DNA of 55,299 nucleotides. Source: an uncultured Gammaproteobacteria bacterium (GTDB taxonomy: Bacteria; Patescibacteriota; Microgenomatia; CAZETR01; Amesbacteraceae). A model generated the notes under the pieces. The model ran no database searches. It was not told where the DNA came from and saw only the letters and a program-made list of their open reading frames with translations. Numbering within the stretch: the stretch's first letter is position 1; the number at the start of each line of letters is the position of its first letter. Below, piece after piece: positions 4,533 to 21,400 of this stretch. The stretch lies in NCBI GenBank assembly GCA_964543035.1, contig CAZIVL010000001.1:433736-489034 (forward strand), read 5' to 3'. A program made the translations under genes and the position numbers.

Positions 4533-5882
4533 ATGTACAAAAAACTGCGCTTTGGGGTCAGGCTCACCACCGCCCTGTTTACAAAATATTATCTAGCCAT
4601 AATTTTGGGTCTGGTTTTAGGCATTGCTAGTTTCATCGGTCTCCCTCCGCTACTTTCCAGGTTGCCCTACATTCGCCCCACCGTGACCATTGCCCAAGTC
4701 GGCCGCTTTACCGAAAAAGATCTCCCATTATCAGTGCTACAAAAAATCTCAATTGGTCTAACTACAGTAGGTGAATCAGGCATTCCCACTCCAGGACTGG
4801 CTAGTAGTTGGCAGGCCACCGATTCCGGCAAAGTATATATATTTACTATTTCAGATCAGCTGCGCTGGCACGACGGCACACCGGTAAAAAGCACAGATAT
4901 TAGTCTCATCTTCAAAGATGCAGAAATTCAGACTCCAGACGATTCGCATCTGATTATCAAACTAAAAAATCCGTTTGCTCCCCTGGCAAGTATTGTCACA
5001 AGACCTCTTTTTAAGACTTCCAAAAATTCTCGACTGATTGGCGTGGGTTCCTACAAGCTCAAGACTATCAGACGAAACGGGGCCTTTATCGAGTCCATTA
5101 CCTTGACTCCAGTCGAAGTCGGTTCCAAGCTTCCACTTCTCAAGTACAATTTTTATTCCTCGCAATCTCAAGCCAGAACTGCCTTCAAGCTAGGACTAGT
5201 GACAGTTGTTCAGGGTGTGAATGAAGTTGAAGATCTGGCCAACTGGCCCAATCTTGAGGTGGAGACACATGTGTCTACCGACCGTCACGTAGTTCTATTC
5301 TTTGATACAGCAGGCGATATGTTCGCCGGAGCTTCAGGAAAAAACTTGAGACTGGCTCTCAACTACGCCATCGACAAGTCCAAATTCCGAGATAGAAGTA
5401 TTGGTCCTCTGGGTCTCAACTCTTGGGCCTACAACGATTCTATTCGCAAATACGACTTTGATCTAAAAAAAGCCAAAGAATTGTTATCCAAAGTAGAAAA
5501 AAAACCTGACCAAATAGACATTACCACTCTGCCCGTATACGAGCAGACTGCTCTCCAGATCAAATCCGATTGGGAGGCCATGGGCCTCAAGGTAAATATC
5601 AAGATAGTCCAAGACATCCCAGACGAATACCAGGTTCTTTTAGTCGCTCAAGTCATTCCCGTCGATCCTGACCAATACAACTTTTGGCATTCCACTCAAG
5701 GCGCCACCAACTTAAGTAGGTTCAACAATCCTCGTATCGACAAATTGCTCGAGGACGGCAGAAAAACCTTAGAGTTAGCCGAGCGCAAGAAGATCTACTC
5801 CGATTTTCAAAGATTCTTATTGGACGAATCTCCCGCCGTCTTCCTCTACTACCCAGAGACCTACACAATTACAAAAAAGTAG
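4533..5882 (+). CDS. ABC transporter substrate-binding protein, family 5 (peptide/nickel type), N-terminally anchored
   Basis: N-terminal TM helix, LRWHDGTPVKSTDI and C-terminal PAVFLYYP motifs typical of SBP_bac_5. No permease or ATPase genes are adjacent. Confidence 0.7.
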   Translation: MYKKLRFGVRLTTALFTKYYLAIILGLVLGIASFIGLPPLLSRLPYIRPTVTIAQVGRFTEKDLPLSVLQKISIGLTTVGESGIPTPGLASSWQATDSGKVYIFTISDQLRWHDGTPVKSTDISLIFKDAEIQTPDDSHLIIKLKNPFAPLASIVTRPLFKTSKNSRLIGVGSYKLKTIRRNGAFIESITLTPVEVGSKLPLLKYNFYSSQSQARTAFKLGLVTVVQGVNEVEDLANWPNLEVETHVSTDRHVVLFFDTAGDMFAGASGKNLRLALNYAIDKSKFRDRSIGPLGLNSWAYNDSIRKYDFDLKKAKELLSKVEKKPDQIDITTLPVYEQTALQIKSDWEAMGLKVNIKIVQDIPDEYQVLLVAQVIPVDPDQYNFWHSTQGATNLSRFNNPRIDKLLEDGRKTLELAERKKIYSDFQRFLLDESPAVFLYYPETYTITKK

Positions 5883-6417: not shown

Positions 6418-6425
6418 GTTTATTG

Positions 6426-6496
6426 CTGCGGGACCTGGAGTCGAACCAAGATAAACGGGGCCAAAACCCGTTGTCCTACCTTTAGACGATCCCGCA
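6426..6496 (-). tRNA. tRNA-Gln (anticodon TTG)
   Basis: Hand fold of the reverse complement: TGCGGGA-TC-GTCT..GGAC-A-ACGGG-TTTTGGC-CCCGT-TTAT-CTTGG-TTCGACT-CCAGG-TCCCGCA-G. The U1:A72 pair is typical of Gln. CCA is not encoded. Confidence 0.8.
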
Positions 6497-6576
6497 ACGC
6501 AAGCATTAAGCTTGTCTGAATGCATTTTACAGCCATATCTGCCAATAAGGCTATACCAGTGGTAAAATTTGACCAA

Positions 6577-6648
6577 GTCCCCGTAGCTCAATGGATAGAG
6601 CAACTCCCTTCTAAGGAGAAGATGCTAGTTCGATTCTAGCCGGGGACA
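6577..6648 (+). tRNA. tRNA-Arg (anticodon TCT)
   Basis: GTCCCCG-TA-GCTC-AATGGATA-GAGC-A-ACTCC-CTTCTAA-GGAGA-AGAT-GCTAG-TTCGATT-CTAGC-CGGGGAC-A. Confidence 0.8.
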
Positions 6649-6670
6649 CAGGTATAATTAGGCTTATCTT

Positions 6671-6743
6671 GGGTCCGTAGCTCAGCTGGTAGAGCAAATC
6701 CCTCTTAAGGATGCGGTCGTGGGTTCGAATCCCACCGGGCCCA
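6671..6743 (+). tRNA. tRNA-Lys (anticodon CTT)
   Basis: GGGTCCG-TA-GCTC-AGCTGGTA-GAGC..AATCC-CTCTTAA-GGATG..GTGGG-TTCGAAT-CCCAC-CGGGCCC-A. Confidence 0.8.
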
Positions 6744-6821
6744 CTTGACACAAATAGTCACCGAAACGAGCACAAAAGATGTGATTGACGATTTTACAAA
6801 GGCCGGTGGTACTATCAAGAT

Positions 6822-7037
6822 ATGCAATCAACAAATGACCAACTCAAGCTACTTCGCCAAGAGCTCCACGAATTCAAGGACAGTTTGTTTTACTCGCGCA
6901 ATTCCGGCCAAAAAGATATCGAGGATGAGACAAAAATCATCAAAACCGAACTTCGCGATATTCACAGAAAACTAGATATATTGATCAAATATTTGCTTCA
7001 AAAAGAAGCACCCTTATCCGCTCCAACAAAGGTGTAG
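6822..7037 (+). CDS. small coiled-coil protein (71 aa)
   Basis: Heptad-like text LKLLRQELHEFKDSL...KTELRDIHRKLDILIKYLL. Preferred over the overlapping ORF 6745-6975. Confidence 0.45.
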   Translation: MQSTNDQLKLLRQELHEFKDSLFYSRNSGQKDIEDETKIIKTELRDIHRKLDILIKYLLQKEAPLSAPTKV

Positions 7038-7046
7038 AATAAACCA

Positions 7047-7337
7047 ATGCCCCTAACACAAAAAATAATTGAAGACGTAATCAGAAAAGTAATCGTGTCA
7101 GAACTAACAGGAGTAAATGCAAAACTCCACACTATTAGTTCTGATGTATCTGTGGTCAAGGAAGATCTGAAAAAACTAAGTAAAAAAGTAAGCAATCTTT
7201 CTGACACTGTTACGAGTTTTTCAGCAGATGTGCAAAAATTTGATCAAGAACAGACAATACTCTCAAGCCAAATTCCAAATCGCACAGATCGCATAGAAAA
7301 ACTCGAAAAAATAGTTTTTGGCTCCATCCAAGCCTAG
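7047..7337 (+). CDS. small coiled-coil protein (96 aa)
   Basis: VKEDLKKLSKKVSNLSDTVTSFSADVQKFDQEQ...RTDRIEKLEKIVFG. It resembles 6822-7037 and 14687-14974 in style. Confidence 0.5.
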   Translation: MPLTQKIIEDVIRKVIVSELTGVNAKLHTISSDVSVVKEDLKKLSKKVSNLSDTVTSFSADVQKFDQEQTILSSQIPNRTDRIEKLEKIVFGSIQA

Positions 7338-7684
7338 TTTTTTCCAACTTTGGCCACGGCCATTTTCTCCATTTTTTCAAGATTGTTACCAATAATTTGA
7401 TATCCAGGTCCTTTAATTTTTTCGAGCTCATCTCGATAGGCTCTTGCTTTAACAAAAAATTCTTCTACTTTTCCCGTATCGACCAAGGGTTTCACCTCAT
7501 CAGGTTTCATCCAGGAGTTTAGCTCTCCAATAGCCCTTCTGGCCTGATCCGAAGATTCAATAATATTTGCGGACTGATCGACAAAATGCTCAAAGTATCT
7601 TGCCCATGAGGCAACACACTCGGCTGGAGTTCGTGCGGATGCCGCTTCGATTAGCAATTTGGTGCTGGTAGTTGCTTCTTCCAT
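7334..7684 (-). CDS. hypothetical protein (116 aa)
   Basis: Clean ORF with no recognisable motif. Its ATG lies 41 nt downstream (minus sense) of the structured element A core. Confidence 0.5.
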   Translation of the reverse strand: MEEATTSTKLLIEAASARTPAECVASWARYFEHFVDQSANIIESSDQARRAIGELNSWMKPDEVKPLVDTGKVEEFFVKARAYRDELEKIKGPGYQIIGNNLEKMEKMAVAKVGKN

Positions 7685-7699
7685 GGACCAATTTTATCT

Positions 7700-8066
7700 T
7701 AAATAACATTAATTTTTGGTGTGTGGGGTCGGAGTTTATATTTTTTGAGTGTGGTAGGTTTCTTGCTTATCGCAAGTCCTTTACTGATTACAACATTTGT
7801 AACCAGATCCACAGCTCTCATTGTCCAATCTGGGGTAATCCCAAATTAGCAATGCAAAATATAAGAGTCCGACCCCCAAAATCTTTCTCGAGCATGCTCG
7901 TTATCCAAAGCGCAATTGCTTTGAAAAAAGAGTGTTCACTCGATCGAAATTTCGACGAGATCGTGAAAATTACTTACAGGGGTGTCCATGAAACAAGACA
8001 AGCCAATTGGCCCATCCATTCATGCTTTGCTCCGCTTCTGGAACAAACTTTTGACACCCCAATTAC
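7700..8066 (-). ncRNA. Candidate structured RNA element, copy A (unknown family), directly 3' of the 289-aa gene
   Basis: Core closed by GGGGTCGGA (7725-7733)/TCCGACCCC (7868-7876). Internal hairpins are CTTGC/GCAAG (7762-7776), TTACA/TGTAA (7788-7802) and TGGG-GTAAT-CCCA (7831-7843). A distal stem GGGGTGTC (7979-7986)/GACACCCC (8053-8060) ends 6 nt from the stop codon. The architecture is shared with copy B with compensatory changes. Strand assignment is tentative. Confidence 0.6.
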
Positions 8067-8936
8067 TTATCCGAAAAACACGATAAGCACAACTACAATC
8101 ACAACGGCCGCCACGATCGCCAAACCCAGCAAGAAGTTTTCAACTTCCTCTTGAATCTGCTGGATCAGGCGGATGAGGCTATAGTTCGAGCCGGCGGGGT
8201 GAGTCTCAAGCACGGGTGTGTGCCTTGAGTGTTGATCGGAATCGTCCCGGGGCGTGCTGGGCTTGGGCTTCGGCGCCGGCGGAGTGGAAATCGGGGCACG
8301 CGGCTCCATCTTCTTCAAAACTTCGGGCTTCGTCTCCTCGATGGTCACATGCGTGACTGAAACATACACGGTATTCGTGATGTTCATCGAATTGTCGTAC
8401 ACGATCTGGCCGGTGTTGGTCCAATTCCCGTTGCTGTAGTTAAAACCAGCAGAATTCGGACCTGACACGACGTTCGAAACGATGTTGCTATTGCTGACGT
8501 TACCCACGGGGGTAGTCAGTACGGGAGTCGCATTGTTCAGCGGCTCTTCAATGAAAAAAGCTTTCAGAGAAACGTTGAACCAATCGCAATTGGTGCCACT
8601 TACTTTGAATTGCGACCACCCGTTGTAGGGTTGACCATCGGCCAGCGCGAGGCTGTCGACACCCCAAACTTCGGGAATGCCAAAAACAAAGATGCCGCCG
8701 CGATCCGTCACCCCATATTGGATATCGCCATTGGACAAATGAAGTTCAACCAGTGTGTTGTACACGGGCTGAGCATTCTCGTCCTGAACAAGGACCTGCA
8801 CAAAGTACAATGGGCAATCCTTGCCTTCGGGGTGAACCACGGGCTGGCCACAGTCCGCATAGGCCGTAGGAACGAAAGTTCCAACGACGATAACCAGTAA
8901 CAGACCAAACAGGGCGAAGAAGATTTTCTTAGCCAT
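8067..8936 (-). CDS. secreted type I membrane protein with a carboxypeptidase-regulatory-like (CarboxypepD_reg) domain and a C-terminal TM anchor
   Basis: Signal peptide MAKKIFFALFGLLLVIVVGTFVPTAYA, then YFVQVLVQDENAQPVYNTLVELHLSNGDIQYGVTDRGGIFVFG, a Pro-rich PPAPKPKPSTP stretch, and C-terminal LGLAIVAAVVIVVVLIVFFG. RBS AAGGAGG precedes the ATG. It is visibly GC-richer than its neighbours. Confidence 0.75.
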   Translation of the reverse strand: MAKKIFFALFGLLLVIVVGTFVPTAYADCGQPVVHPEGKDCPLYFVQVLVQDENAQPVYNTLVELHLSNGDIQYGVTDRGGIFVFGIPEVWGVDSLALADGQPYNGWSQFKVSGTNCDWFNVSLKAFFIEEPLNNATPVLTTPVGNVSNSNIVSNVVSGPNSAGFNYSNGNWTNTGQIVYDNSMNITNTVYVSVTHVTIEETKPEVLKKMEPRAPISTPPAPKPKPSTPRDDSDQHSRHTPVLETHPAGSNYSLIRLIQQIQEEVENFLLGLAIVAAVVIVVVLIVFFG

Positions 8937-9194
8937 TTCTACTGGACCTCCTTAAAGGCCAGGTGTTTACACTCAGATGCAAGCATCTAAGGTAAACCAA
9001 AAAAGAAAATAGGGTTGATTTCACAGGCGTATTGAACGCAGCGGAGACACAAGATAAGGCTCGGGCTAGCACTCCCTTGCACTATCACTAGTGTCACCAA
9101 AAGGTGACAATAATTTGTGTCCCCATTGCGTCCAACAGACCAATGAAAACCCTTTAGTAATTCTCGAATCTCGATTTTTAATGTACTAGACTTC

Positions 9195-9266
9195 TGCATT
9201 TTCGGTCTACCGAAGCACGCTTTGTGCGTAGGAGACCTCATCAGCCCCGCTCAGCGGAGTAATGCA
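9195..9266 (-). ncRNA. Hammerhead ribozyme, type III topology (candidate)
   Basis: The reverse complement reads UGCAUU-A-CUCCGC-UGA-GCGGGG-CUGAUGA-GGUCU..(24 nt)..AGACC-GAA-AAUGCA. All invariant core nucleotides are present in order, and stems I (6 bp), II (5 bp plus extension) and III (6 bp) are present. The NUH site is UUA. Confidence 0.8.
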
Positions 9267-9394
9267 TATGGACCAAATTTTTAAGGGTCTTAAATTACTT
9301 ACGACCTTACGGTCGAAGTATTTTTGCTGTCGGACTTCGTCCGAACTATGACGCTGCATATCTTGATAGATATTTCGCGTCGCAATAAATAATT

Positions 9395-9815
9395 GTTATT
9401 TTCGTGTGTGGGGTAGGTGCTTGTGTCTTGTTTAGTGTGTGTTAATTTCTGCTCGTAGCAGAGTCTTCAACGATTCAAATTGCTCTGAATCGTTTTACAC
9501 GCTTGTTGTCCGTCATCTGGGTTAATCCCAAACGAAAGCCAACTTATACAAGATGCAAATGCACCTACCCTCAAGTTTTGTTTCTCCAGCAATGTCGCTG
9601 AATTAGACGCAACGTCTAACGAGCAAAAAAGCTAGGTATCCAAAACCCGAGAGGTTTCAATCTTCTGCAATCCACAATTAGGATTGACTTGCGGTCAAAG
9701 ACAAAAGTCATTGGCACAGAAGAGAAAGAGTTAGTTATCCGCCAGCCGGTTCTATGTTCAACCACTCGGTTGATTCACGGGGTTATCCCATTACATAGAA
9801 CCAGCTGATCGGTCT
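9395..9815 (-). ncRNA. Candidate structured RNA element, copy B (same family as 7700-8066), directly 3' of the 637-aa gene
   Basis: Core closed by GGGTAGGTGC (9411-9420)/GCACCTACCC (9561-9570). Hairpins are TCTGCT/AGCAGA (9448-9462), AACGATTC/GAATCGTT (9469-9494) and TGGG-TTAAT-CCCA (9518-9530). The distal 15-bp stem 9743-9757/9793-9807 starts 12 nt from the stop codon. Its single mismatch is C.A on plus, which is G.U on minus. Confidence 0.6.
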
Positions 9816-9819
9816 AGTA

Positions 9820-11733
9820 CTAATTCAGAATGGAGTTCACCGACTCAAGTGAGTACGGCGCGTGGACAAGGTCCCACCAGTCTGGTTGAAGAACTCGTTC
9901 CCCGGGTTGTGTGACATTGACTTGCGTCAAGTGTCCAGCTCCATCGCGATACCATAATTGGTTCGCAATAACAAAAGCTGCACGGGTACTACCATCCAAA
10001 TCTACGGCGACATCATTCGCAATGCGATCCACCAACTTCGGCGAATTGCTCACATTGGAGAACGACATCAATCCTTGATTCGACTTGGAAGTTTGGACAT
10101 CCCCAAAAGCATCAAACGACAAGTTCGTCGTTTTTTGATTGGAGCATCCAAATCCGTACTGACTACCATGAATGTTAACCACGCACAAAACGTCGACAGG
10201 GTTGCGAAAAGCAATCCAATTCCCATCTGGGCTTGTGTCTGGCCGAACACCTTTGATTTTCAGGTCACGAACGAACGTGTTCCATTGATCAGTGACATAA
10301 AGTTCGCCATCAATCACATAAGGAATCGTCCAATCACGCGACCATTCTGGCTGGATCTCATTCACATTATCTGTGAAAGTAATCTGTCGAAGGCCAGTAC
10401 CATCAACGCCAACAACCCATAGGTCCGCATTCTGTGCTTCAGGCATTTGAGCCGAAAACACAATCTTGCAGCCATCGGGGCTAATTGACGGGTTCAACAT
10501 CCATGCGCCATCAAGACGGGCGTCCCAAGTGATCAATTCAATAGTTGAACTAATAGGATTTACCAATCGGTAAATCTCAGATGTGTTCTCTTTGTCGTCT
10601 GCGACAACAAAGATGACATGCTCGACTGACACACAAAAACCCGGCTCAGGGATAGTCACCACGGGGGTAGCTTCCTGAGTAGGAGTATCTGTGGGCGTCG
10701 GGCTGGCCGTGGGCGTCGCAGTCGGAGTATTACTGGGCGTAGGCGTGGAACTCGGTGTCTCACTCGGAGTTGGCGTAGGGGAAGAAATTTCGATAAATCC
10801 CTTGCAATCCGGTGAAGAATTACCATCCACAAATGCCAAGTAGGTCCGCGAACCAGGTGTCAGGTCGTAATCGACACCATAATAGGTATTGTTAGTACCC
10901 ATTCTGCCACTAGAGACCAATTCCCATGTATCGAGTCGAAAAACTTCAACCCATTCACCATTACCCCACACGGTAAGAAAAATTACATTATCACCATGGG
11001 AGTACGAAACCTCCAGCAAATCACATTGCGAAGGGGGTTGTACGGTTGGCGTCGGCTGAGTTCCAGTCGGCGTCTGGGTGTTAGTAGGCGTATTCGTCGG
11101 GGTGGATGTGAAAGTGTTCGTCGGAGTACTCGTGTGAGTCTCCGTGGGGGTCGCCGTGAAAGTTGGCGTGTTAGTGTTCGTAGCTGTCGGGGGAATATTG
11201 GTATTTGTTTCAGTTGGAGTGCTGGTCCATGTGGCTGTCTGAGTCACGTTGCATGAGCGGCCGATAAAGGTCGTCCAATGGTGAACCAGATAGTCGAACA
11301 CGGGCACCCCGTTGATCCAAACCCAACCTCCGCGATGAACGTCAAACTGAACTTTGATACAACCTTCGATATTCAAATCGAGAGACAACTCAATGTCGCC
11401 TCCAGGTTGAACCCACTTCTGACCCGTCCCGGCCAAATGAATCTGACCGTGAAAGACGGTAGCGTCAAATGCGTCGAGTTCGACATCACAGACACTCTGA
11501 CCCTTATTATGGATCACAACAGAAGAAGAACCTTCGCCGCCACCGGAAGCATATTCCAGATTCCAGTCTTCGCAGGGCTTAGGCGTGCTCGTCATCTCGG
11601 GCGTCGCGGAAATCGCGGCCGTCGGAGTGGCTTCGGAATCAGCTTTCACTGTCCGTGTCGGATAAGAACCAATGGCGGATGCCAAAAGGCTTAAAACCAA
11701 AACCCAAAACGTAGGCTTACGGAACTTGTTCAT
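9820..11733 (-). CDS. secreted multidomain protein: signal peptide, two Cys-containing domains joined by PT-rich linkers, and a C-terminal TolB-like (PD40) beta-propeller
   Basis: MNKFRKPTFWVLVLSLLASAIG signal peptide. Long TPT/PTxT linkers. PD40-type repeats NPSISPDGCKIVFSA and RPDTSPDGNWIAFRN. High GC with C/G-rich third positions compared with flanking genes. Confidence 0.8.
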   Translation of the reverse strand: MNKFRKPTFWVLVLSLLASAIGSYPTRTVKADSEATPTAAISATPEMTSTPKPCEDWNLEYASGGGEGSSSVVIHNKGQSVCDVELDAFDATVFHGQIHLAGTGQKWVQPGGDIELSLDLNIEGCIKVQFDVHRGGWVWINGVPVFDYLVHHWTTFIGRSCNVTQTATWTSTPTETNTNIPPTATNTNTPTFTATPTETHTSTPTNTFTSTPTNTPTNTQTPTGTQPTPTVQPPSQCDLLEVSYSHGDNVIFLTVWGNGEWVEVFRLDTWELVSSGRMGTNNTYYGVDYDLTPGSRTYLAFVDGNSSPDCKGFIEISSPTPTPSETPSSTPTPSNTPTATPTASPTPTDTPTQEATPVVTIPEPGFCVSVEHVIFVVADDKENTSEIYRLVNPISSTIELITWDARLDGAWMLNPSISPDGCKIVFSAQMPEAQNADLWVVGVDGTGLRQITFTDNVNEIQPEWSRDWTIPYVIDGELYVTDQWNTFVRDLKIKGVRPDTSPDGNWIAFRNPVDVLCVVNIHGSQYGFGCSNQKTTNLSFDAFGDVQTSKSNQGLMSFSNVSNSPKLVDRIANDVAVDLDGSTRAAFVIANQLWYRDGAGHLTQVNVTQPGERVLQPDWWDLVHAPYSLESVNSILN

Positions 11734-11873
11734 TTTGCAATCAATCCTTTCAGGGTGATTACGTGCTGATGTACGCCTTGCTTGATTCGTCTGGGTTGAG
11801 AACGATTAACCCTCCTGGGTCTTTCTTTCTTAACCTTGCGGGCTTCAATAGACAAAGTAAATTTGTCAGCCAT
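11730..11873 (-). CDS. small basic protein (47 aa), translationally coupled to the 637-aa gene; not in the ORF track
   Basis: My translation is MADKFTLSIEARKVKKERPRRVNRSQPRRIKQGVHQHVITLKGLIAK. A strong RBS is present (AAGGAGGttcttATG). Its stop overlaps the next start as ATGA (11730-11733). Confidence 0.5.
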   Translation of the reverse strand: MADKFTLSIEARKVKKERPRRVNRSQPRRIKQGVHQHVITLKGLIAK

Positions 11874-12418
11874 AAGAACCTCCTTGGCTCTTATTTTTCA
11901 AAAAAGTACACGATGGTGAACGAACAGGTGATAGACTTTTCCCTAAAGTCTCTTCAGCGTATTACATGTCTAGACATTTTTTTGTCCATTACATGAATAA
12001 GTCTGGTTGCGACATACGTCACTATAAATCCTTCAGCTTGAGGTGCTGACAAAATGTGGATTTATGCAGGGTTTACGAACGGGGAAATAATAGGGGGTAA
12101 TAGAGGAAGATGCGAGGTGTGAAACGCAGTGGAAACCCAAATAACATTAGTATGATCAGTACCTGTCGGTTCAACAAAAATTGACTTTAACCAACAACTA
12201 ATCCCTTACCAAATCACTAGATTCCCAATGCGTCTCACAAGATGCACTTCCTTTAAACTAACTCTAAAACCTCTCTTTTTAACGTGCTAGCGTTATTAAG
12301 TAGTTACAGGATTAGTCTGAAAGCTATTTCCAGGCTTCCTAACTACGACTATAGGATACCATTAATCCCATAGTTTGTCAAGGGCAAATACATATCAGAT
12401 ACTCATTCTTCCCTCTCC

Positions 12419-14686
12419 TTGAGAAGGAGCGGGATTGAGGGTGAGGTATTGGCAAGCCTTGGATGCTATGATTTATATATGGAACCAGTAGTTCTCACTC
12501 TTCGTGTCCCCAAGACTTCGGAAAACACTCCCGAGCAGACGGCCCAGCTCCTGGCCTCACTGTCGCGCGCTACTTCAAAAGCAGGTCTTCTGGGTGGCAA
12601 AAATTTGCACCTTAGTCTGGAGGTCACAGTTCTAAATGGTCTCATTACTTTTATTATCGTCACCCCCAAATCACTAGAGTCTTTTGTCCGCTCTCAAATG
12701 CTCGCCACTTATCCCGACGTCGTCATAGAAATTATCGAAGATTATCTGAAAGACTGGTCAACTGAGAAACTGACCAACTGGTCAACTACGGTTGTCCGTC
12801 AACAGTACGCCCAATTCTTTCCACTAAGAGATTACGCCGACTACAAAGAGGTCGACCCTATGCTTCCTGTTTTGGGAGTACTATCAAAAGCCGCCGAAGG
12901 GGACAAAGTCTTACTGCAGTTTGTCTTGACCCCTGCTCCCTCATCTGTGCAAAAAAATGCTTATAGATATCTGCATCCTCAAACTGTCGAAAAAGCTCCC
13001 ACTCCAGAAGGCAAGAAACTGATCGATGACAAGCTATCTCAGCCCTTAGTCGGAGTCTCTATTCATCTGGCTACCTCAAATCCATTTCTGATTCCGGATA
13101 TTGCCGGCTCCATGTCCGTACTCAACAGACCAGATGGCAACAGCCTCATTTCCCGCAAACCTATGCCTTGGGAAAAGCGTGCACTTTGGCAATGTATTAT
13201 TAATCGCAAACCATTTAGCAATCTAACCATTCAGCCATCAGTATTAAATGTCATGGAGCTATCATCTCTTTGGCACTTACCAGGGATCTACACCAAGCTA
13301 CCCAATGTGGCTTGGTCAGCTCTCGCCGCCTCAGTCACCGAACCCCCTGAAAATTTACCCATATATTCTAACGATGTCATCCCGAGCAACGTCGAGGGAT
13401 CCCTTTCAACTCCCCAAGAGATTTCTCCGCGCGCTTCGCTTGGTCGAAATGACATTAATAATGACATTAACTTTTTTGCCAAAACCCAATTTAGAAACCA
13501 AGACGTCATCTTTGGCATCAAGCTCGAAGACCGTCTCAGACACACATATATCCTGGGCAAGTCCGGAACTGGTAAATCGACATTGCTCGAAAACATGGCG
13601 GTCGACGATTTTAAAAAGGGCAGGGGAGTCGCTTTCATCGATCCTCATGGAGACGCCTGTGACAATCTTTTGAATTACATTCCCAAAAATCGCATCAACG
13701 ACACCATCTACTTCAACCCCGCCGACCGCGAGCACCCCGTCAGTCTAAATATTTTAGAAGTCGACAATCCCGATCAAGCCGAGCTGGTGGCCTCTGGTAT
13801 AGTCTCCATCTTCTACAAGCTGTATGGCAGGTCTTGGGGTCCCAGGCTCGAGTATATCCTGCGAAATACCCTCCTCACACTTACTCAGATCCCCGGCAGC
13901 ACCTTGCCCGACGTCATCAAAATGCTGACGCAAAAAGATTTTCGCCAGAAGATCTACAAGCAGATGAAAAACGAGCAGTTACTAAGCTTCTGGCAAAACG
14001 AGTTTGACGTCTTAGAAGAAAAGACCCGAGCCGAGCAGATCAGCTCCATTCTCAACAAAGTCGGCCAGTTTGTAAACTCGCCTCTCATTCACGATCTCAT
14101 CTCTCACCCCAAGTCGACTATCAATCTTGAAAAAGTCCTAGACGAAGGCAAGATCCTGATTGCCAATCTGTCTCAAGGAAAATTGGGTGAGGACAATGCG
14201 ACACTTCTGGGAGCCATGCTCATTACCAAATTGCAGCTATCTGCCATGAAGCGGGTGGACATGCCCAAAGAAGACCGCAAAGAGTTTTTCCTATATGTGG
14301 ACGAGTTTCAAAACTTTGCCACCAATTCCTTTACCAAGATCCTCTCCGAGGCTCGCAAATTTAGGCTCGGCCTAGTACTCGCCAATCAATATATTTCCCA
14401 GATTCCCGAAGAGATCCAAAAAGCCATCTTTGGCAATGCCGGCACTGTCATCTCATTTGTCGTGGGTGCCGAGGACGCCCGGGTTATGGAAGCCGAATTT
14501 GGCAAGATCTTTACCAAAGAAGCTCTGGTTTCCCTCACCAAGCATCAGATAGCTCTCAAAATGACGATTGATAACTCTCTTTCCCAACCCTTCTCGGCCT
14601 ACACTCTTCCACCATTCAAATCCACAAATATGAACCGCGACAAAGTCATCGAATCCTCCAGACAAAGATACGCTCTAAAAAAATAG
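12419..14686 (+). CDS. P-loop ATPase of the TraD/VirD4 (type IV coupling protein)/HerA-like superfamily with a ~360-aa uncharacterised N-terminal region
   Basis: Walker A ILGKSGTGKSTLLEN followed by FIDPHGD. Walker B FFLYVDEFQNFAT. C-terminal GNAGTVISFVVGAEDA resembles the TraD/VirD4 motif. The TTG at 12419 lies inside hairpin 12411-12433, so the likely true start is ATG 12479 (MEPVVLTL). Confidence 0.75.
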   Translation: MRRSGIEGEVLASLGCYDLYMEPVVLTLRVPKTSENTPEQTAQLLASLSRATSKAGLLGGKNLHLSLEVTVLNGLITFIIVTPKSLESFVRSQMLATYPDVVIEIIEDYLKDWSTEKLTNWSTTVVRQQYAQFFPLRDYADYKEVDPMLPVLGVLSKAAEGDKVLLQFVLTPAPSSVQKNAYRYLHPQTVEKAPTPEGKKLIDDKLSQPLVGVSIHLATSNPFLIPDIAGSMSVLNRPDGNSLISRKPMPWEKRALWQCIINRKPFSNLTIQPSVLNVMELSSLWHLPGIYTKLPNVAWSALAASVTEPPENLPIYSNDVIPSNVEGSLSTPQEISPRASLGRNDINNDINFFAKTQFRNQDVIFGIKLEDRLRHTYILGKSGTGKSTLLENMAVDDFKKGRGVAFIDPHGDACDNLLNYIPKNRINDTIYFNPADREHPVSLNILEVDNPDQAELVASGIVSIFYKLYGRSWGPRLEYILRNTLLTLTQIPGSTLPDVIKMLTQKDFRQKIYKQMKNEQLLSFWQNEFDVLEEKTRAEQISSILNKVGQFVNSPLIHDLISHPKSTINLEKVLDEGKILIANLSQGKLGEDNATLLGAMLITKLQLSAMKRVDMPKEDRKEFFLYVDEFQNFATNSFTKILSEARKFRLGLVLANQYISQIPEEIQKAIFGNAGTVISFVVGAEDARVMEAEFGKIFTKEALVSLTKHQIALKMTIDNSLSQPFSAYTLPPFKSTNMNRDKVIESSRQRYALKK

Positions 14687-14974
14687 TCAGTTGGCCAGTT
14701 GGCCTAGCAAATCCATCATCTTCTTTGAAGGTTTGGCTCGAGGAAGTCCTGGTAACTTCAGATGAGTATCAATTCTGTCCAATCTCTTCTCATGATCAAT
14801 CGATCTTCTGTCCATCTCATCTACAAACACAGTCAATTTTTTATCAATCCTGTCTAATTTTTTGTGAATTGGGACCAATTTTTCATCAATTTTCTCAAGT
14901 CCTGGACCTAATTTCGCATCTAATCGTCCATCGATTAGCTCTCCTATCTTTTTTAGATCTTGATTCGTCAACAT
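14687..14974 (-). CDS. small coiled-coil protein (95 aa)
   Basis: LEKIDEKLVPIHKKLDRIDKKLTVFVDEMDRRSIDHEKRLDRIDTHL. The repetitive RIDxKL heptads are similar in style to 6822-7337. Confidence 0.5.
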   Translation of the reverse strand: MLTNQDLKKIGELIDGRLDAKLGPGLEKIDEKLVPIHKKLDRIDKKLTVFVDEMDRRSIDHEKRLDRIDTHLKLPGLPRAKPSKKMMDLLGQLAN

Positions 14975-15014
14975 ACCACCAGAATATCACACAGTTACAA
15001 TTACCAATCAAGCA

Positions 15015-15680
15015 CTAAATACTAAGTCTCCAAACCTTCCCAGTCGTCTTCAATTTCTCAATCCAATCAGTGATCGCAGTTGATAGTTTTTGCTGCTTAA
15101 GAGCGGCTTCCGCTTCAGCTTTCCTCTCTTCTGGTTTCAGTGATGCCAACAGTTTCTCATTTTCTTTCAGATAGGCATCTACTTCTTCAGCAGAGACAGA
15201 CGCTTCTTTCTCCACCGCTTTTTCCACTCTCATTTTGAGGATCAGATCTTTTTTCAGATCGTTAATTGTCATTCCTCTTTCGGCTAGCAATGTTTCCAAA
15301 TCAGTTCCTTCTCCCAAGGTTCCTTTGATTTCTTCGATCTTGGCATCTACTTCACTGTCTGGGATCTTGATACCTAGTTTGTCCAGTTCTGCCTCAGCCA
15401 GCTTCTGTGTAACCAGAGAATCTACCATTGCTAGTCCTCCCTGAGCAAACAATGCTTGGTCTACCTGATACCGAAAGATTGGCATGTTGTTGACCAGGGC
15501 TACCACAGGCCAAGTTTTAGTGCGATACCAAAAGAAGACTAAACCAGCAACTATTACTGCTAAACCAAAATACACTCTCATCCCACCACTCCTATTAGCC
15601 ACAGGTGCACTCATAACCGGAGTATCAAATGCCACTACGTCTTCTTCGACTTCTTTTTGGACTTTTCTTCTCGCTGCCAT
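15015..15680 (-). CDS. membrane-anchored SurA N-terminal domain/PrsA-like chaperone (no obvious parvulin domain)
   Basis: TM helix YFGLAVIVAGLVFFWY, then VDQALFAQGG...LVTQKLAEAELDKLGIKIPDSEVDAKIEEIK, typical of the SurA_N region. Confidence 0.5.
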   Translation of the reverse strand: MAARRKVQKEVEEDVVAFDTPVMSAPVANRSGGMRVYFGLAVIVAGLVFFWYRTKTWPVVALVNNMPIFRYQVDQALFAQGGLAMVDSLVTQKLAEAELDKLGIKIPDSEVDAKIEEIKGTLGEGTDLETLLAERGMTINDLKKDLILKMRVEKAVEKEASVSAEEVDAYLKENEKLLASLKPEERKAEAEAALKQQKLSTAITDWIEKLKTTGKVWRLSI

Positions 15681-15882
15681 GATGCAAGAAATAATATCCT
15701 ACATTTCCCACGCTCGCAACCCCCAAATATAGCTTGCACAAAAAGATATAATAGATATATGTCAGAAGAAACGATCGGAGATGCAAAATCAGAGCCAAAT
15801 GGCTGCGCCGACCAAATCTTCAAAGTCATTGAGTTTTGTTTGGTCATAAGCTTCGTCTCAATCCTCGCTGTATACTGATCTC

Positions 15883-16797
15883 ATGCTCGTAGACGAAATC
15901 GATATTGTTTTGACGGCTGGTCACGGCGGTCCAGGCAAGCTAGCTCCCGTAAAAACACCCACTTTTAGACCAGTTGGTGGCGACGGCGGCCGTGGGGGAG
16001 ATATCTATGCGACAGTTACTACAGACCTCATGGTGCTCAATCGACTTGCCGGTGTCCCCGAGATCAAAGCCGAGGATGGAGAAAAGGGCGGCATGAACGG
16101 CTCGTCCGGAAAAAATGGCTCAGATATCACCATCCAAATCCCCGTGGGGACTTCTATCGTGGATACTAAGACTGGAAAAATAATCGAAGCAGGTACACCC
16201 AATACCACGCTTCTTCTATGCAAAGGCGGCATCGGTGGCCGGGGTGGCAACTATCGAGCTCAGCCGGGGAGAGCCGGAGTCCAGATTCATGCCAAATTGA
16301 TTCTCAAGCTTATTGCCGACTACGGCTTTGTGGGACTACCAAATGCCGGCAAAAGCAGTCTCCTAAACGAGTTGACCAATGCCAACGCTCCCGTAGGAGC
16401 ATATCCCTTCACCACTCTCGAGCCAAATCTAGGAGTAATCGGCGGCAAAATCATTGCCGATATTCCAGGTCTTATCGAAGGAGCATCCGAAGGGAGAGGA
16501 CTGGGTATCAAGTTCCTAAAGCACATCGAAAAAGTTTCTACTCTCTATCACTGCATAGCCGCAGACAGTGAAAATATTTCAGCTGATTATGAGACTATTA
16601 CTCGAGAGTTGACAGAGTTTGGGTCCGGTCTTGAGACCAAGCCCAGAATCATAATTCTTACCAAGACTGATTTGGTCACTCAACACCAAATTGAATCAAG
16701 CGTAAATGAACTTCAAAAGTTTGGCCACGAAGTCCTCACCTGTTCTATATATGATCCCGAAAGCATCGATGCCCTAAAACTTCATCTCAGCTGTTAA
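15883..16797 (+). CDS. obg: GTPase Obg (short, no C-terminal domain)
   Basis: Obg fold with Gly-rich GGDGGRGGDIY and KGGIGGRGGN. G1 is GLPNAGKSSLL, G2 is FTTLEPNLG, G3 is DIPGLIEGA. Confidence 0.9.
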   Translation: MLVDEIDIVLTAGHGGPGKLAPVKTPTFRPVGGDGGRGGDIYATVTTDLMVLNRLAGVPEIKAEDGEKGGMNGSSGKNGSDITIQIPVGTSIVDTKTGKIIEAGTPNTTLLLCKGGIGGRGGNYRAQPGRAGVQIHAKLILKLIADYGFVGLPNAGKSSLLNELTNANAPVGAYPFTTLEPNLGVIGGKIIADIPGLIEGASEGRGLGIKFLKHIEKVSTLYHCIAADSENISADYETITRELTEFGSGLETKPRIIILTKTDLVTQHQIESSVNELQKFGHEVLTCSIYDPESIDALKLHLSC

Positions 16798-16810
16798 AAT
16801 AATCCTCACT

Positions 16811-18223
16811 ATGGCTCAAAACGACGTCGTCATTCGCTTTAACGAGGTTTCTTTCAAGTACAGTGACAAAAAAGTCATTCTGGACGAAGCCAATTTTTCA
16901 GTGCGCAGAAACACCATCATGACCATCATGGGTCAAAATGGCGCTGGCAAAAGCACCATCTTCAAGCTTCTTTTAGGAGAGCTCACTCCTCAGTCAGGAA
17001 AAATAAATATGGAGCTAGGAACTACCGTGGGTATTGCCAAGCAGATGATACCAGTAGACATGCAGGAGCTCGACATTGTCGCTTATTTCAAGACGGCTCT
17101 TCCAGACAAAGAATATGGTATCGAAGGCGATATTGTAAAAATCCTCAAAGTCGTAAACCTAGATATTCCTCTAACTAGGATTGTAAAGAGTCTTTCAGGG
17201 GGCCAAAAAGCCAGACTACTTCTGGCCTACGCCCTCATTTCTGAGCCCGATGTATTACTCCTAGATGAGCCCACCAACAATCTCGATAGTACCGGCATCG
17301 AGCACCTGACCACATTTCTGATTGAATACAAAAAAACTTGTCTCGTCATTTCTCACGACGCCGATTTTCTCAACTGCTTTACTGACGGAGTCATAAATCT
17401 GGATGTGGCTACGAAAAAAACGGAGCAATTCGAGGGCAACTATTATGACGTCTTGTCAGAAATGGCCGCCAAGCTCGAAAGAGACCGACTCCTAAATTCT
17501 AGGTTAGAAAAAAGTATTAAGGATCGCTTTGAAAAGATAAATAAGCTAGGTGGCAAAAGTATCGCCATGAGTCAGCTGGCCAGGAGGATAAGAGAAGATA
17601 TCGAGGAGGATAGGGAGGAGATGGTCGACATGCGAAGGGAAGATAAGACTATTCCAGATTTCACAATCAGAGACCAAGAGTACGTGGGTCAAATCGGAAG
17701 ACTTACACAGCCTGTCGAGCTGGGGTTAAACAAAGGCACCCGGGTTCTTATCAAAGGGCCAAATGGTATTGGCAAAAGTACTCTCCTCAAGTCTATTCTG
17801 AAAGGGGAGTCAGCCCAGATTAATTCCGAAGTCCGGATTGGTTACTACAGTCAGGATTTTTCCGAGCTGGACTTTGACCAGACGGGCTATGAGTCCCTAT
17901 ATTCAGTATCCCAGACCAAAAGAGTCCAGGATATTTATGAAGCCGGAGGCAGGTTCTTACTCAGTAGTGAAATCTTGGCCAACAAGGTAGAGTCTATGTC
18001 CGAAGGTCAAAAGGGGTTACTTTGTTACGCCCGGTTCATGCTCCAAGTTCCCGGCATCCTGATTTTGGACGAGCCCACCAATCACATCAACTTCCGCCAT
18101 ATTCCAGTCATAGCTAGCGCTATCAACAATTACAAAGGTCCCATCATCTTCGTCAGCCACTTAGCTGATTTTGTTGATAAGATAAAAGTAACAGTGGAAA
18201 TCGATCTAGAAAAATACAGATAG
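16811..18223 (+). CDS. ABC-F family ATPase (two ABC cassettes, no TM domain)
   Basis: GQNGAGKST/LSGGQKARLLLA/LLLDEPTN, then GPNGIGKSTLL/MSEGQKGLL/LILDEPTNH, with a charged linker (RIREDIEEDREEM) between them. Confidence 0.85.
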   Translation: MAQNDVVIRFNEVSFKYSDKKVILDEANFSVRRNTIMTIMGQNGAGKSTIFKLLLGELTPQSGKINMELGTTVGIAKQMIPVDMQELDIVAYFKTALPDKEYGIEGDIVKILKVVNLDIPLTRIVKSLSGGQKARLLLAYALISEPDVLLLDEPTNNLDSTGIEHLTTFLIEYKKTCLVISHDADFLNCFTDGVINLDVATKKTEQFEGNYYDVLSEMAAKLERDRLLNSRLEKSIKDRFEKINKLGGKSIAMSQLARRIREDIEEDREEMVDMRREDKTIPDFTIRDQEYVGQIGRLTQPVELGLNKGTRVLIKGPNGIGKSTLLKSILKGESAQINSEVRIGYYSQDFSELDFDQTGYESLYSVSQTKRVQDIYEAGGRFLLSSEILANKVESMSEGQKGLLCYARFMLQVPGILILDEPTNHINFRHIPVIASAINNYKGPIIFVSHLADFVDKIKVTVEIDLEKYR

Positions 18224-18232
18224 AAAAACCCG

Positions 18233-19612
18233 ATGTCAAAAACAGAGGTGTCTAGTACAGAGTATATAGCTCAAGTAAACAGAGTCGTAAAACAAGTTGT
18301 GGAGTCTCCTGACTACCTAGATCCATCGACGGGTTACGTTTCCCAAGCAGCCTGGAATAGTTTGGTCCAAGGTGGAATTTTAGCCGCTGCACTCCATGAT
18401 CGGGATCCCAAAAACTATCGAAGAGAGAAAATGGCAGTTATACGAGACACTTCCAGCACAGATCCCCAACTTGGTCTTATGTACGGCATCATGACAGCCC
18501 TCGTCATAGACAATATTTACAAATTTGCCCCAGATGGTTTAAGAAACGAGTATTTTGACAAGATAAGAGATGGTCGGTTGTGCGGACTCGCCTTTACAGA
18601 AAGAAAGATATCTGGCAGCTCCATACAAATGAATTCCCGCTTCACCGAGAATGGTTATCTAACTTTTTCAAAAAGATTTCAAGGCATCTCCGGTCACGAT
18701 CTTTTAGTCTTTGCCCAATCGACAGATAATCCGTACTTACTCGGTCTGTTTTTAGTTGAAAAACAATATATCACCACCGAATTTATCCAAACAGAAGGAC
18801 TCGGGGGCATTCCTTATGCTTTCAACTCAGGTCACGTACCAATGGATATCGTGCATCAAATTGCTTTACTCCACACCCGAAAAGACTTAGGGGTAATTCA
18901 ACAAATTTTCACAGAAAGCAGGTTGGGATTTCCTGGCATGTCTTTGGGTCAATTAGAACTCTTGGAGAGAATCGCAAAGCAGTATTCAGAAAACAGACTG
19001 ATCGGTGCCTCACTCCAAAAAGATATGGCAATTCCTAAAAGTGAACTGGAATCAATCATGGCCAGGCGAATGGTAGTACAAGCAATATATGAGCACAGTA
19101 TCGACTATTTAAATTTACATCCTGACACACTTAGGCTTGCTCCCGAAGGCAGTTTGATCAAAGCGCTCTCAACCGAATACGCGTTACTTGCCGCCCTCAC
19201 TGCAGCAAAGCTTGGCGGGGGAGACTCATATACTGCTGGTTCAAAATTGAGCCTAGTAAACGATATATGGCCGTTTACTATTTTTGAAGGCAACAATGAC
19301 ATGCTTTATAGCCAAGCAGGTCGATCACTTGCCCGAAGTTTATTGTATGACCAAGAATTGCCAGGTGGACTATTTGACAGGTCAAGAGCTGCCCAAAATC
19401 TTTTTCCAGGGTCCAAAGCGGTCATAGACAGATTGGTCGCAATTAACAAAGACGTGGGTTTAGAAAATATCTGGGGCCAAATAGCAGCCAGGTGTTTAGC
19501 TCTAGGTTGTTTAGACAAAGACCGACTAGACACTCACGACTACACCCTAGCCACCGAGCTTCTCAACCTAGAAATCCAACAAATCGGGCTAAAATACAAG
19601 ATCGGTATATAA
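18233..19612 (+). CDS. acyl-CoA dehydrogenase-fold protein (divergent)
   Basis: CGLAFTERKISGSS resembles ACAD signature 1. C-terminal AAKLGGGDSYTAGSKLSLVNDIWPFTIFEGNNDMLYSQAGRSL resembles the ACAD C-terminal helix bundle (..IYEGTNEI..). Confidence 0.5.
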   Translation: MSKTEVSSTEYIAQVNRVVKQVVESPDYLDPSTGYVSQAAWNSLVQGGILAAALHDRDPKNYRREKMAVIRDTSSTDPQLGLMYGIMTALVIDNIYKFAPDGLRNEYFDKIRDGRLCGLAFTERKISGSSIQMNSRFTENGYLTFSKRFQGISGHDLLVFAQSTDNPYLLGLFLVEKQYITTEFIQTEGLGGIPYAFNSGHVPMDIVHQIALLHTRKDLGVIQQIFTESRLGFPGMSLGQLELLERIAKQYSENRLIGASLQKDMAIPKSELESIMARRMVVQAIYEHSIDYLNLHPDTLRLAPEGSLIKALSTEYALLAALTAAKLGGGDSYTAGSKLSLVNDIWPFTIFEGNNDMLYSQAGRSLARSLLYDQELPGGLFDRSRAAQNLFPGSKAVIDRLVAINKDVGLENIWGQIAARCLALGCLDKDRLDTHDYTLATELLNLEIQQIGLKYKIGI

Positions 19613-19621
19613 TTTCAATAT

Positions 19622-20182: not shown

Positions 20183-20394
20183 CGTAGCTACCAAACTTAC
20201 TTTTTATGAAATTTAAACAATTCAATCGGTTGACCTTTGTTCAAAACATCTCCCCAAAGAGTGAAAACAAGCAAAAATGGAGCCGCAACTCCCGAAATCA
20301 AAAATAACTTCATATCACCACTTCTTTGCCAAGGCAGTGACTCCAAGACAGATTCTATTAAACTTCTCGTCAGTGGAAACACTTCGTTTGACAT

Positions 20395-20471: not shown

Positions 20472-20562
20472 ATGTTAATGGACGATGAGCTCGGCTCATA
20501 CGACCACCATGCGCAACACTAATTTTATCACGATGACAGGCACTAACTGTTAAAATCACCCC

Positions 20563-21309: not shown

Positions 21310-21321
21310 AATATACTCTAA

Positions 21322-21395: not shown

Positions 21396-21400
21396 CAAAC

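Follow-up and report, generated by a model that had tools for sequence, protein, structure and literature searches.

The stretch of DNA analyzed in this work (hereafter, the window; 55,299 nt, with a guanine plus cytosine (GC) content of 44.8%) belongs to a Microgenomates (Amesbacteria-related) bacterium of the Patescibacteria and embeds, at positions 7685-12478, a block of two minus-strand genes, 8067-8936 (289 aa) and 9820-11733 (637 aa), hereafter referred to as cassette gene 1 and cassette gene 2. This block is an old variable locus rather than a recent insertion and, according to the data reported below, it probably represents a resident operon of hypervariable nature, which encodes two exported or surface proteins and whose transcript is processed by a ribozyme. 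The non-coding DNA of the block evolves at the rate of housekeeping DNA, while the coding bodies show no detectable nucleotide similarity to those of relatives beyond two short pieces. The non-coding DNA harbors a predicted type III hammerhead ribozyme and two pairs of homologous structured RNAs (elements A and B) with compensatory changes; the existence of paired RNA elements, suspected in an earlier note on this DNA, is thus borne out.

The block was compared with the corresponding loci of a groundwater genome (L083, L084, and L087), of a Logan contig (L086), and of a more distant genome (L088), in which the protein encoded by the adjacent ATPase gene (12419-14686) is 80-88%, 88%, and 68% identical to that of the window, respectively. 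The groundwater genome and L086 have the locus in common with the window, flanked in all three by SBP, tRNA-Arg/Lys, ATPase, SurA-like, and Obg genes. The proteins encoded by the flanks of L083 and L086 show an identity of 73-94% with those of the window, and in both the tRNA-Arg/Lys genes lie beside the block; L088 has the ATPase-side architecture in common with the window. Probing L086 and L083 with positions 7685-12478 (blastn) confined the non-coding similarity to four segments (7692-7974, 9036-9284, 9385-9738, and 12188-12402), with an identity of 74-96%; the coding matches consisted of two short pieces only, both from gene 1, i.e., the signal peptide (8887-8935) and a C-terminal motif (8197-8317). 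The housekeeping flanks are 72-83% identical to the same two relatives at the nucleotide level. The proteins encoded at the position of gene 2 have different lengths and architectures (637 aa with a PD40 propeller, 553 aa with a transmembrane anchor, and 440 aa); what they have in common is limited to the signal peptide or to a single domain of some 75 aa, the C-termini being different. Moreover, L083 and L086 harbor a third gene after the first copy of element A, 69% identical between the two and with a host-like GC content at third codon positions (GC3); the window lacks this gene.

A type III hammerhead ribozyme with an intact core (CUGAUGA...GAAA) is predicted at positions 9193-9269 of the minus strand, between the second copy of element A (A2) and the first copy of element B (B1), and scores 72.6 bits with the covariance model (CM) R2. 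Read on the gene strand from 9269 to 9193, the sequence consists of AUGCAUU-A, CUCCGC-UGA-GCGGGG, CUGAUGA, a G and a C enclosing a 34-nt hairpin, GAAA, and AUGCA. The core positions C3-U4-G5-A6-N7-G8-A9 and G12-A13-A14 are in place and invariant in all eight aligned copies; helices I, II, and III comprise 6, 5 (+2+4), and 6 bp, the first two being capped and the third open. The junction shows the G10.1-C11.1 and A15.1-U16.1 pairs, and position 17, which must not be a G, is the A at 9260; the minimum-free-energy fold of 9185-9275 is exactly this hammerhead junction. The predicted cleavage site is therefore 3' of this A, between 9260 and 9259 of the minus strand.

A strict descriptor of the motif, for which 0.005 chance matches are expected per shuffled window, retrieved, besides the window site, seven others from related loci, compared with about 0.13 expected by chance over 1.4 Mb. 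The L083 and L086 orthologues, found by homology and not by the descriptor, have an unchanged core and helix III; helix I exhibits C-G/U-G swaps in both, and helix II differs between the window and L086 by a G-C to C-G and a C-G to U-A change, its length (34 nt) and its bulged U being unaltered. In the alignment of eight sequences, 10 out of 15 pairs are compensatory and none of 500 shuffles was as good; for the copies that the descriptor picked, this count is in part circular. A second MAFFT alignment (A9), in which one row was misaligned, was discarded in favor of this one (A8). On the basis of its defining features and of the comparative support, we regard the window copy as a hammerhead ribozyme, although it does not reach the Rfam gathering score. 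The ribozyme postulated in the earlier note is thus supported by a full core and by the compensatory changes in L083 and L086. An ORF (open reading frame) of 50 codons at 9359-9207 was discarded as spurious, its conservation being due to the overlap with the hammerhead.

The search with CM R2 of 1.4 Mb of ATPase loci retrieved 16 hammerheads, all of them upstream of the ATPase gene and on the array strand, opposite to it; the window, L083, L086, and L003 contain one hammerhead each, L088 and L009 contain three, and L012 contains six. The hammerheads of the other Microgenomates likewise fall in the gaps of same-strand gene arrays. These arrays lie upstream of the ATPase gene, with hammerheads between short orphan genes, in L012 (2345-6373), L009 (1283-5213), and L088 (2290-7724), all on the minus strand; one array gene encodes a cupredoxin. 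In L088, two hammerheads share the same 61-nt core; in L009, insertions lengthen two copies to about 145 nt. In L003, a terminator-like hairpin (197-227, minus strand) with flanking A and U runs (AAAAAAAGCGGGCC...GCCCGCUUUUUUU) directly follows the hammerhead. A hammerhead of the same subfamily (46 bits with CM R2) was also retrieved from a 63-kb predicted viral contig of IMG/VR (L091, UViG_3300036980_000702; 4775-4834, plus strand), with the same helix I (UCCCGC-AAA-GCGGGA).

Element A is about 190-230 nt long, and one copy follows each cassette gene on the minus strand: copy A1 at 7699-7925 (211 bits with CM R1; 83-89% identical to the L083 and L086 copies) and copy A2 at 9385-9625 (169 bits). 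In its fold, two small hairpins precede a closing helix, inside which lie three more hairpins. The alignment of six copies from three genomes comprises 35 pairs, with 97% of the cells paired and 12 pairs compensatory; none of 500 shuffles was as good, and slid controls paired in 31-46% of the cells. The two small hairpins ahead of the closing helix covary as well. The z-scores of the fold are -7.2 and -7.9 on the gene strand vs. -4.3 and -5.2 on the other one, and G-U pairs are numerous; these two features suggest that the RNA is produced from the minus (gene) strand. The invariant boxes UUUGGGAUUNNCCCAGA and CCCCACACAC each occur exactly twice in the window. A search of 6700-12700 on both strands against Rfam 15 retrieved nothing relevant to elements A and B at E-values up to 5, and, at the gathering score, the whole window matched nothing but tRNAs. 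The single metagenome match to element A (L090) proved to be a chance match.

The non-coding region between gene 2 and the ATPase gene carries, on the minus strand, a promoter-like site (TTGACA-17-TATCCT with TG, 12353-12381), recognized by a consensus scan and oriented divergently from the ATPase gene, which may drive the transcription of the block. The surrounding segment (12255-12402) is 91% identical in L086 and 81% identical in L083, and includes the 5'-proximal stem-loop of the gene 2 leader (GUAGUUAGGA...UCCUGUAACUAC, 12300-12346, minus strand). A leader motif is present twice on the minus strand, ahead of gene 1 (copy 1, CUAGUACAUUAAAAAUCGAGAUUCGAGAAUUACUAAAGG, 9151-9189, conserved) and ahead of gene 2 (copy 2, CGCUAGCACGUUAAAAAGAGAGGUUUUAGAGUUAG..., 12250-12292, homologous to the former); it also occurs downstream of each L088 hammerhead and has, therefore, a wider reach than element A. 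Element B consists of a single-stranded conserved motif (CUAGYACRUUAAAA...GAGA...AGAG) followed by a 21-bp long-range helix. According to RNAalifold, copy B1 (9030-9126, minus strand), in the 5' untranslated region (UTR) of gene 1, combines the long-range helix with an inner hairpin, and copy B2 (12109-12238, minus strand), in the 5' UTR of gene 2, forms the 21-bp helix; over six copies, 8 out of 21 pairs are compensatory. The inner hairpin of B1 covaries (CACC/GGUG, CAUC/GAUG, CAUU/AAUG). Compared with shuffled sequences, the 5' UTRs fold with z-scores of -9.7 (gene 1) and -5.6 (gene 2).

Metatranscriptome contigs from sludge, undirected and of low depth, map on 11843-12103, 9924-10413, and 8768-9024; none of them reaches the hammerhead region (9100-9700). 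The deepest ones (word depth 15.6 and 6.1, in two runs) cover the gene 2 leader piece 11843-12103 only, and their start lies downstream of the 3' arm of helix B2, at a distance of 6-16 nt. They could represent a processed or stable leader fragment, or else an assembly effect of the structured RNA.

The two genes differ from their surroundings also in composition. The earlier note had proposed to compare sliding-window GC, tetranucleotides, and codon usage; these analyses single out both genes as the strongest codon outliers and their region as the one with the most deviant tetranucleotide profile. In 1-kb windows, the GC content peaks at 0.516 (8001-9000) and 0.508 (10501-11500), all the other windows being at or below 0.486 (mean 0.448). 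The statement that both genes are GC-richer than the surrounding ones thus holds for the 1-kb peaks and, as regards GC3, for gene 1 only: the GC3 of gene 1 (0.645) is the highest of 52 genes, the runner-up having 0.545, while that of gene 2 (0.503) falls inside the range of the other genes, its excess GC residing in codon position 2 (0.484) and deriving from the Thr/Pro-rich linkers. As for tetranucleotides, 9501-11500 correlates least with the remainder of the window (z -4.25); the eight 2-kb windows with starts from 7501 to 11001 all score low (z from -2.1 to -4.3), and they account for eight of the nine lowest.

Codon usage was expressed as a z-score of the log-likelihood of synonymous choice, given the amino acid content and the codon preferences of the window. 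Against all genes, gene 1 scores -6.9 and gene 2 -7.8 (background minimum -4.0). The proper background, given the strand asymmetry at third positions, is represented by the same-strand (minus) genes, against which the two scores are -11.7 and -10.6 (background mean -0.46, standard deviation 1.29, minimum -3.5). Over the whole window, the fractions of C and G at third positions (C3 and G3) are 0.30 and 0.15 in plus-strand genes, and 0.14 and 0.27 in minus-strand ones. The plus strand is C-rich irrespective of coding direction, as exemplified by the plus-strand genes compared with the minus-strand genes at 24753-29807, and the cumulative GC skew drops steadily over all 55 kb; a similar strand disparity is reportedly present in a complete Microgenomates genome (PMC7143001).

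Codons ending in A account for 9% of those of gene 1 and 14.5% of those of gene 2 vs. 25-37% in all 16 other minus-strand genes, and the C3 depletion typical of these 16 genes is missing in both cassette genes. Furthermore, the two genes hardly ever use ATA, CTA, AGA, or GTA, and show an approximately threefold enrichment in NCG codons. Codon usage is normal in other secreted or Thr-rich proteins (29764-32061 and 32012-33979) and in the highly expressed L20 and IF3; hence, neither the protein type nor the expression level explains the signal. High expression and secreted-protein type were accordingly ruled out as causes (L20, IF3, a GH5 protein, and a CBM96 protein all have normal codons), and so was a simple inversion, the plus-strand genes having an A fraction at third positions (A3) of 0.275 and a G3 of 0.15, unlike the cassettes. 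The same signature is found in the cassette genes of L083, L086, and L088, with an A3 of 0.13-0.15 and a C3 of 0.26-0.34, compared with 0.25-0.33 and 0.09-0.16 in their same-strand neighbours. Since it is common to the cassette genes of these relatives, the codon signature is a property of the gene class or of the locus and not of one recent insertion.

The deviation in composition is limited to the coding bodies. The non-coding gaps of 883, 685, and 382 nt are the first, second, and fourth longest of the window, where the median is 20 nt (the 685-nt gap shrinks to 605 nt when a 46-codon upstream ORF is counted). They had been described as long and AT-rich; their length is indeed exceptional, while their AT-richness is relative only, a GC content of 0.40-0.43 being ordinary for the intergenic DNA of the window (0.38-0.47).

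A chimeric assembly, whose possible breakpoints at the block borders the earlier note had advised checking, was ruled out: two independent assemblies cross all the borders at even depth. Two per-run Logan contigs from different runs, L001 and L002, are 100% identical to positions 6596-10194 and 8138-21733 of the window, respectively. The depth is even from the flanks through the block (9.4/8.7 and 10.8/12.4). In each run the contigs meet within the genes, at positions that differ from one run to the other, and never at a border of the block; no joints were reported. The sequence occurs in full in two wastewater metagenome runs, and in traces in sludge runs.

The exported product of cassette gene 1 combines a signal peptide and an all-beta ectodomain with a conserved juxtamembrane motif and a transmembrane anchor at the C-terminus. 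It is related only to the proteins that L083 and L086 encode at this position (one relative cluster), with an identity of 32-42%. The juxtamembrane motif PKPSTPRDDSDQHSRHTPVLETHP (24 residues, approximately 224-247; window 8197-8317, minus strand) is 100% conserved in the L083 homologue, the identity outside it being 33%, and the L086 homologue has a shorter version (RRDDSDQHSR); the motif could act as a sorting or processing signal. A strong ribosome-binding site (AAGGAGG) precedes the gene. The AlphaFold model of the protein (pLDDT, predicted local distance difference test, of 40) is too poor for a fold comparison.

The exported product of cassette gene 2 carries a signal peptide and two Pro/Thr linkers, and its C-terminal part is a PD40 beta-propeller, whose repeat scores 25.1 bits against a Pfam cut-off of 20.9. 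It is essentially an orphan, the best match in a search of 5.8 billion proteins being 27% identical over 35% of the length and the others weak or of low complexity; a candidate Amesbacteria protein in L003 proved to be unrelated. No relationship between the two cassette proteins was detected, nor did either of them match any solved structure. These results agree with the earlier note as to the export of both proteins (Sec-type signal peptides are readable at both N-termini), the C-terminal anchor of gene 1 (a transmembrane helix), and the PT linkers and TolB-like propeller of gene 2, while the CarboxypepD_reg-like domain attributed to gene 1 found no support in Pfam.

Upstream of gene 2, a putative ORF of 46 codons for a basic peptide (11733-11873, minus strand) is preceded by a strong AAGGAGG site, and its stop codon overlaps the ATG of gene 2 (ATGA). 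At the same place, L086 has an ORF of 28 codons, and in L083 the ORF is fused in frame to the main one as an N-terminal extension; at the DNA level, the window and L086 have the conserved block GCAAGGTTAAGAAAG in common. Close to the stop codon of gene 2, the inverted repeat I12 (15 nt, 93% complementary) forms a hairpin (9743-9807, minus strand), and hairpins of other sequence occupy the same place in L083 and L086. A terminator scan did not retrieve any convincing intrinsic terminator after either gene.

On the whole, we can depict the following scenario for the block. The minus strand would be transcribed from the promoter divergent to the ATPase gene, which encodes a protein resembling type IV coupling proteins (T4CPs), with a single transcript start at the 12381-12353 site. 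The resulting RNA would consist of two like units, an architecture demonstrated by the conserved structures on the gene strand: each unit comprises a structured 5' leader (motif plus helix B), a Shine-Dalgarno sequence, the coding sequence, and element A as a 3' element of about 230 nt. The hammerhead between the units would cut the bicistronic RNA after A9260; the gene 2 message would then end shortly past element A2 with a cyclic phosphate, and that of gene 1 would begin with a 5'-OH and the folded ribozyme, followed by leader B1, a layout resembling the promoter-proximal stem-loop of gene 2. Elements A and B might control the stability or the translation of the messages, which is the weakest step of the scenario. 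Lastly, the coding bodies would most likely turn over by recombination anchored in the conserved scaffold, from a separate gene pool; such a replacement is suggested by the contrast between a host-like, conserved scaffold and unalignable, differently composed coding bodies.

Several data weigh against this scenario. None of the Rfam hammerhead models detects the window copy, even at E-values up to 10 in a search restricted to 171 nt (9150-9320), and the gathering score of RF00008 (Hammerhead_3) is reached in none of six related loci, although the model aligns end to end with the shorter L003 homologue (23.1 bits, against a gathering score of 48.5). This failure is probably due to the length of helix II and the shortness of helix I; the latter comprises 6 bp plus a triloop, and no tertiary contact was identified. 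The hammerheads from other loci were chosen by a descriptor that demands pairing, which makes part of the covariation count circular. As regards element A, the 650 kb of related loci searched with CM R1 contained no copy beyond the six training ones, and nothing real emerged from pattern scans of viral and metagenome collections; it is known from three close genomes only, as is element B, and no function is assigned to either. The RNA evidence amounts to a handful of undirected, low-depth contigs, the co-transcription, the cleavage site, and the transcribed strand being predictions. Recombinational turnover is read from the pattern alone, and neither a donor nor a second allele of either cassette was found. 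Moreover, gene 1 is recognizably orthologous in three genomes, which also fits vertical descent with very fast divergence.

This last point leads to a serious rival, especially for gene 1, namely that the block evolved in situ only: vertically inherited surface proteins would have diverged under strong diversifying selection, with the codon signature caused, alternatively, by a codon selection specific to the gene class (e.g., for messenger RNA stability or translation), and no import would have occurred. The gene 1 orthologues, at the same position in L083 and L086 and with the signal peptide and the 24-aa motif in common, are consistent with this idea, as are the failure to find a donor and the recurrence of the A3-poor signature in the cassette genes of three relatives, which is what class-specific selection would give. 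However, point divergence does not produce proteins of different architecture and length such as those at the position of gene 2; the normal codons of the other secreted, Thr-rich, and highly expressed genes, and the lack of the strand-specific C3 depletion that affects each of the other 16 genes on the minus strand, also argue against it. We give in situ evolution a modest chance of being the whole explanation. A third possibility is that the block is the remnant, possibly domesticated, of a phage or another mobile element lodged beside the T4CP-like ATPase gene, whose long transcripts were cut by hammerheads. Hammerheads clustered around variable genes are indeed typical of prophages (Perreault et al. 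2011, PMC3088659), one IMG/VR viral contig (L091) carries a hammerhead of the same subfamily (46 bits), the composition is foreign-like, and the small orphan array genes of L012 and L009 have a GC3 of 0.6-0.7, the L012 genome having 39% GC. On the other hand, no phage, integrase, or transposase family was detected in the block, in its neighbours, or among the L012 and L009 array proteins; no meaningful PHROG or Pfam match pointing to a phage emerged, the sole PHROG match falling on a low-complexity linker. The locus is syntenic over genomes, its scaffold DNA is host-like, and att repeats are missing. According to these data, a mobile-element remnant appears improbable.

A reading along the lines of the earlier note, i.e., an island recently integrated next to the tRNA cluster and linked to a conjugative TraD/VirD4 system, draws on the vicinity of tRNA-Gln, tRNA-Arg, and tRNA-Lys, on the foreign codon usage, and on the TrwB_AAD_bind match of the adjacent ATPase. 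It is largely refuted by synteny, the same locus being present in relatives, and we consider it highly improbable. As had been stated, the block begins about 0.9 kb past tRNA-Lys(CTT), which ends at 6744, i.e., 941 nt before 7685, but these 0.9 kb between the tRNAs and the block are occupied by small genes. Also in agreement with the note, a Pfam scan of the proteins at 6822-15680 revealed no integrase, transposase, or reverse transcriptase; furthermore, no exact match of at least 12 nt to any part of the three tRNAs, as expected of an att-like repeat, occurs in 6801-13500, and an assembly artefact is excluded. The idea that the ATPase is a conjugation gene bounding the block found no support. 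It matches the Pfam families TrwB_AAD_bind, DUF87, and DUF8128, its closest proteins (66-70% identity) are those of Candidatus Amesbacteria/Microgenomates, and its 594 confirmed relatives in species-representative genomes nearly all belong to the Patescibacteria. A recent preprint counted 5,713 VirD4-like T4CP homologues in 2,918 genomes of the Candidate Phyla Radiation (CPR), mostly away from virB4 (bioRxiv 10.1101/2025.01.22.634366). The ATPase gene is thus a resident, widespread, core-like chromosomal gene of the Patescibacteria and probably no marker of a conjugative element. It is also the only match related to type IV secretion systems among the proteins scanned near the block, the other neighbours, including those in relatives, being housekeeping ones. 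What stands of the "acquired, RNA-punctuated accessory module" of the earlier note is the distinct composition, the two cassettes, the RNA elements, and a content varying between relatives; its acquisition as a tRNA-side island does not, since the locus is syntenic and lacks both an integrase and an att-like repeat.

Besides the resident, ribozyme-processed operon that we favor, a more far-reaching version of it can be conceived, in which a dedicated Microgenomates cassette system lies beside the T4CP-like ATPase gene, its hammerhead and A/B scaffold both processing the units and anchoring the swapping of surface-protein coding bodies drawn from a compositionally distinct, shared pool. Element A might then be a new functional RNA class (e.g., a processing/stability module or a ribozyme) and not a passive 3' UTR. 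We regard this version as unlikely.

The rest of the window has the gene content of a small-genome bacterium, with housekeeping genes such as those for UvrC, trigger factor, IF3, L20, a class II tRNA synthetase, PBP1, and Obg, and 15 tRNAs. In several genomes, the cassette block and the ATPase gene are flanked by genes for small coiled-coil proteins, 70-130 aa in length (window 6822-7037 and 7047-7337 on the plus strand and 14687-14974 on the minus strand; L003 3172-3567; L086 686-1063 and 1335-1655), with weak Pfam matches of the coiled-coil type only (XhlA, Lpp-like). The tRNA-Arg(TCT)/tRNA-Lys(CTT) genes (window 6425-6744; L086 534-1139; L083 12423-12820) have, in both relatives, an inverted orientation with respect to the block, and the coiled-coil genes between the tRNAs and the block are interleaved differently in L083 and L086; this implies that the DNA between the tRNAs and the block was rearranged. 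In L086, Fic and NYN-domain genes (7663-10004), absent from the window, are located between the cassette promoter region and the ATPase gene.

Patescibacteria have tiny, packed genomes and live attached to host cells, and the variation and regulation of their surface proteins are largely unknown; in this context, the locus devotes about 1.9 kb of conserved structured RNA to two fast-changing exported proteins. If the proposed scenario is correct, it provides a testable case of ribozyme-based messenger RNA processing in this phylum and two new RNA motifs for characterization, and hammerhead arrays upstream of a T4CP-like ATPase gene may serve as a marker for variable surface-protein loci in related genomes. 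It also calls for caution in the use of island finders, the foreign-looking composition belonging here to an old resident locus and not to a recent insertion. What is new is the setting of the hammerhead, a syntenic chromosomal locus for exported proteins in Patescibacteria, the long-helix-II ribozyme variant missed by curated models, the association of the hammerhead with two undescribed RNA motifs, and the link to a T4CP-like ATPase gene. A full-text literature search, whose incomplete coverage makes it weak evidence of novelty, did not retrieve any work linking hammerheads to Patescibacteria or CPR.

Among the known systems, clustered hammerheads flank variable genes in the polycistronic RNAs of prophages, and their cleavage has been demonstrated in vitro (Perreault et al. 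2011, PMC3088659). As in those clusters, the hammerheads described here lie on the gene strand, in the gaps between non-constant genes, with the same proposed role of cutting a long transcript into gene-length messages, and relatives of the window carry 3-6 copies per array. Unlike them, the window locus is chromosomal and syntenic, belongs to Patescibacteria, and has no phage genes found; it contains a single hammerhead, joined with the structured RNAs A and B (no Rfam match), and this ribozyme is of type III, with an extended helix II of 34-42 nt, and lies below or outside the Rfam models. With tRNA-linked genomic islands, the block shares the deviant codon and oligonucleotide composition, the accessory exported proteins, and a nearby tRNA cluster, but it lacks an integrase, an att duplication, and tRNA adjacency, the same site is occupied in relatives, and its coding bodies alone are foreign-like, the intergenic scaffold being host-like and conserved. 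A diversity-generating retroelement would require a reverse transcriptase and a template/variable repeat pair with differences at adenines; the former is missing, and the repeats of the window are non-coding structured RNAs, the differences between which are compensatory and not adenine-specific.

The cassette arrays of integrons are similar in having unrelated ORFs on the same strand, each followed by a conserved, imperfectly palindromic, folded element, and a variable gene content. However, no IntI integrase was found at the block, and each window cassette has its own long leader and ribosome-binding site. The attC sites of integrons possess core sites with the consensus GTTRRRY/RYYYAAC; element A, by contrast, is about 190-230 nt long, folds into four helices, and has ends (GGGGUCGGA...UCCGACCCC) devoid of such core sites, and its G-U pairs point to selection on the gene-strand RNA. 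Lastly, variable surface-protein loci with conserved 5' regions are represented by the vsp/vlp genes of Mycoplasma and the sap genes of Campylobacter fetus. In the window, no silent copies, invertible promoter, or repeat-driven phase switch were seen, and the variation at the locus is documented between genomes and not within a clone. The block nevertheless resembles these loci in combining a conserved leader and signal peptide with highly variable ectodomains, in exported or anchored products of a host-dependent bacterium.

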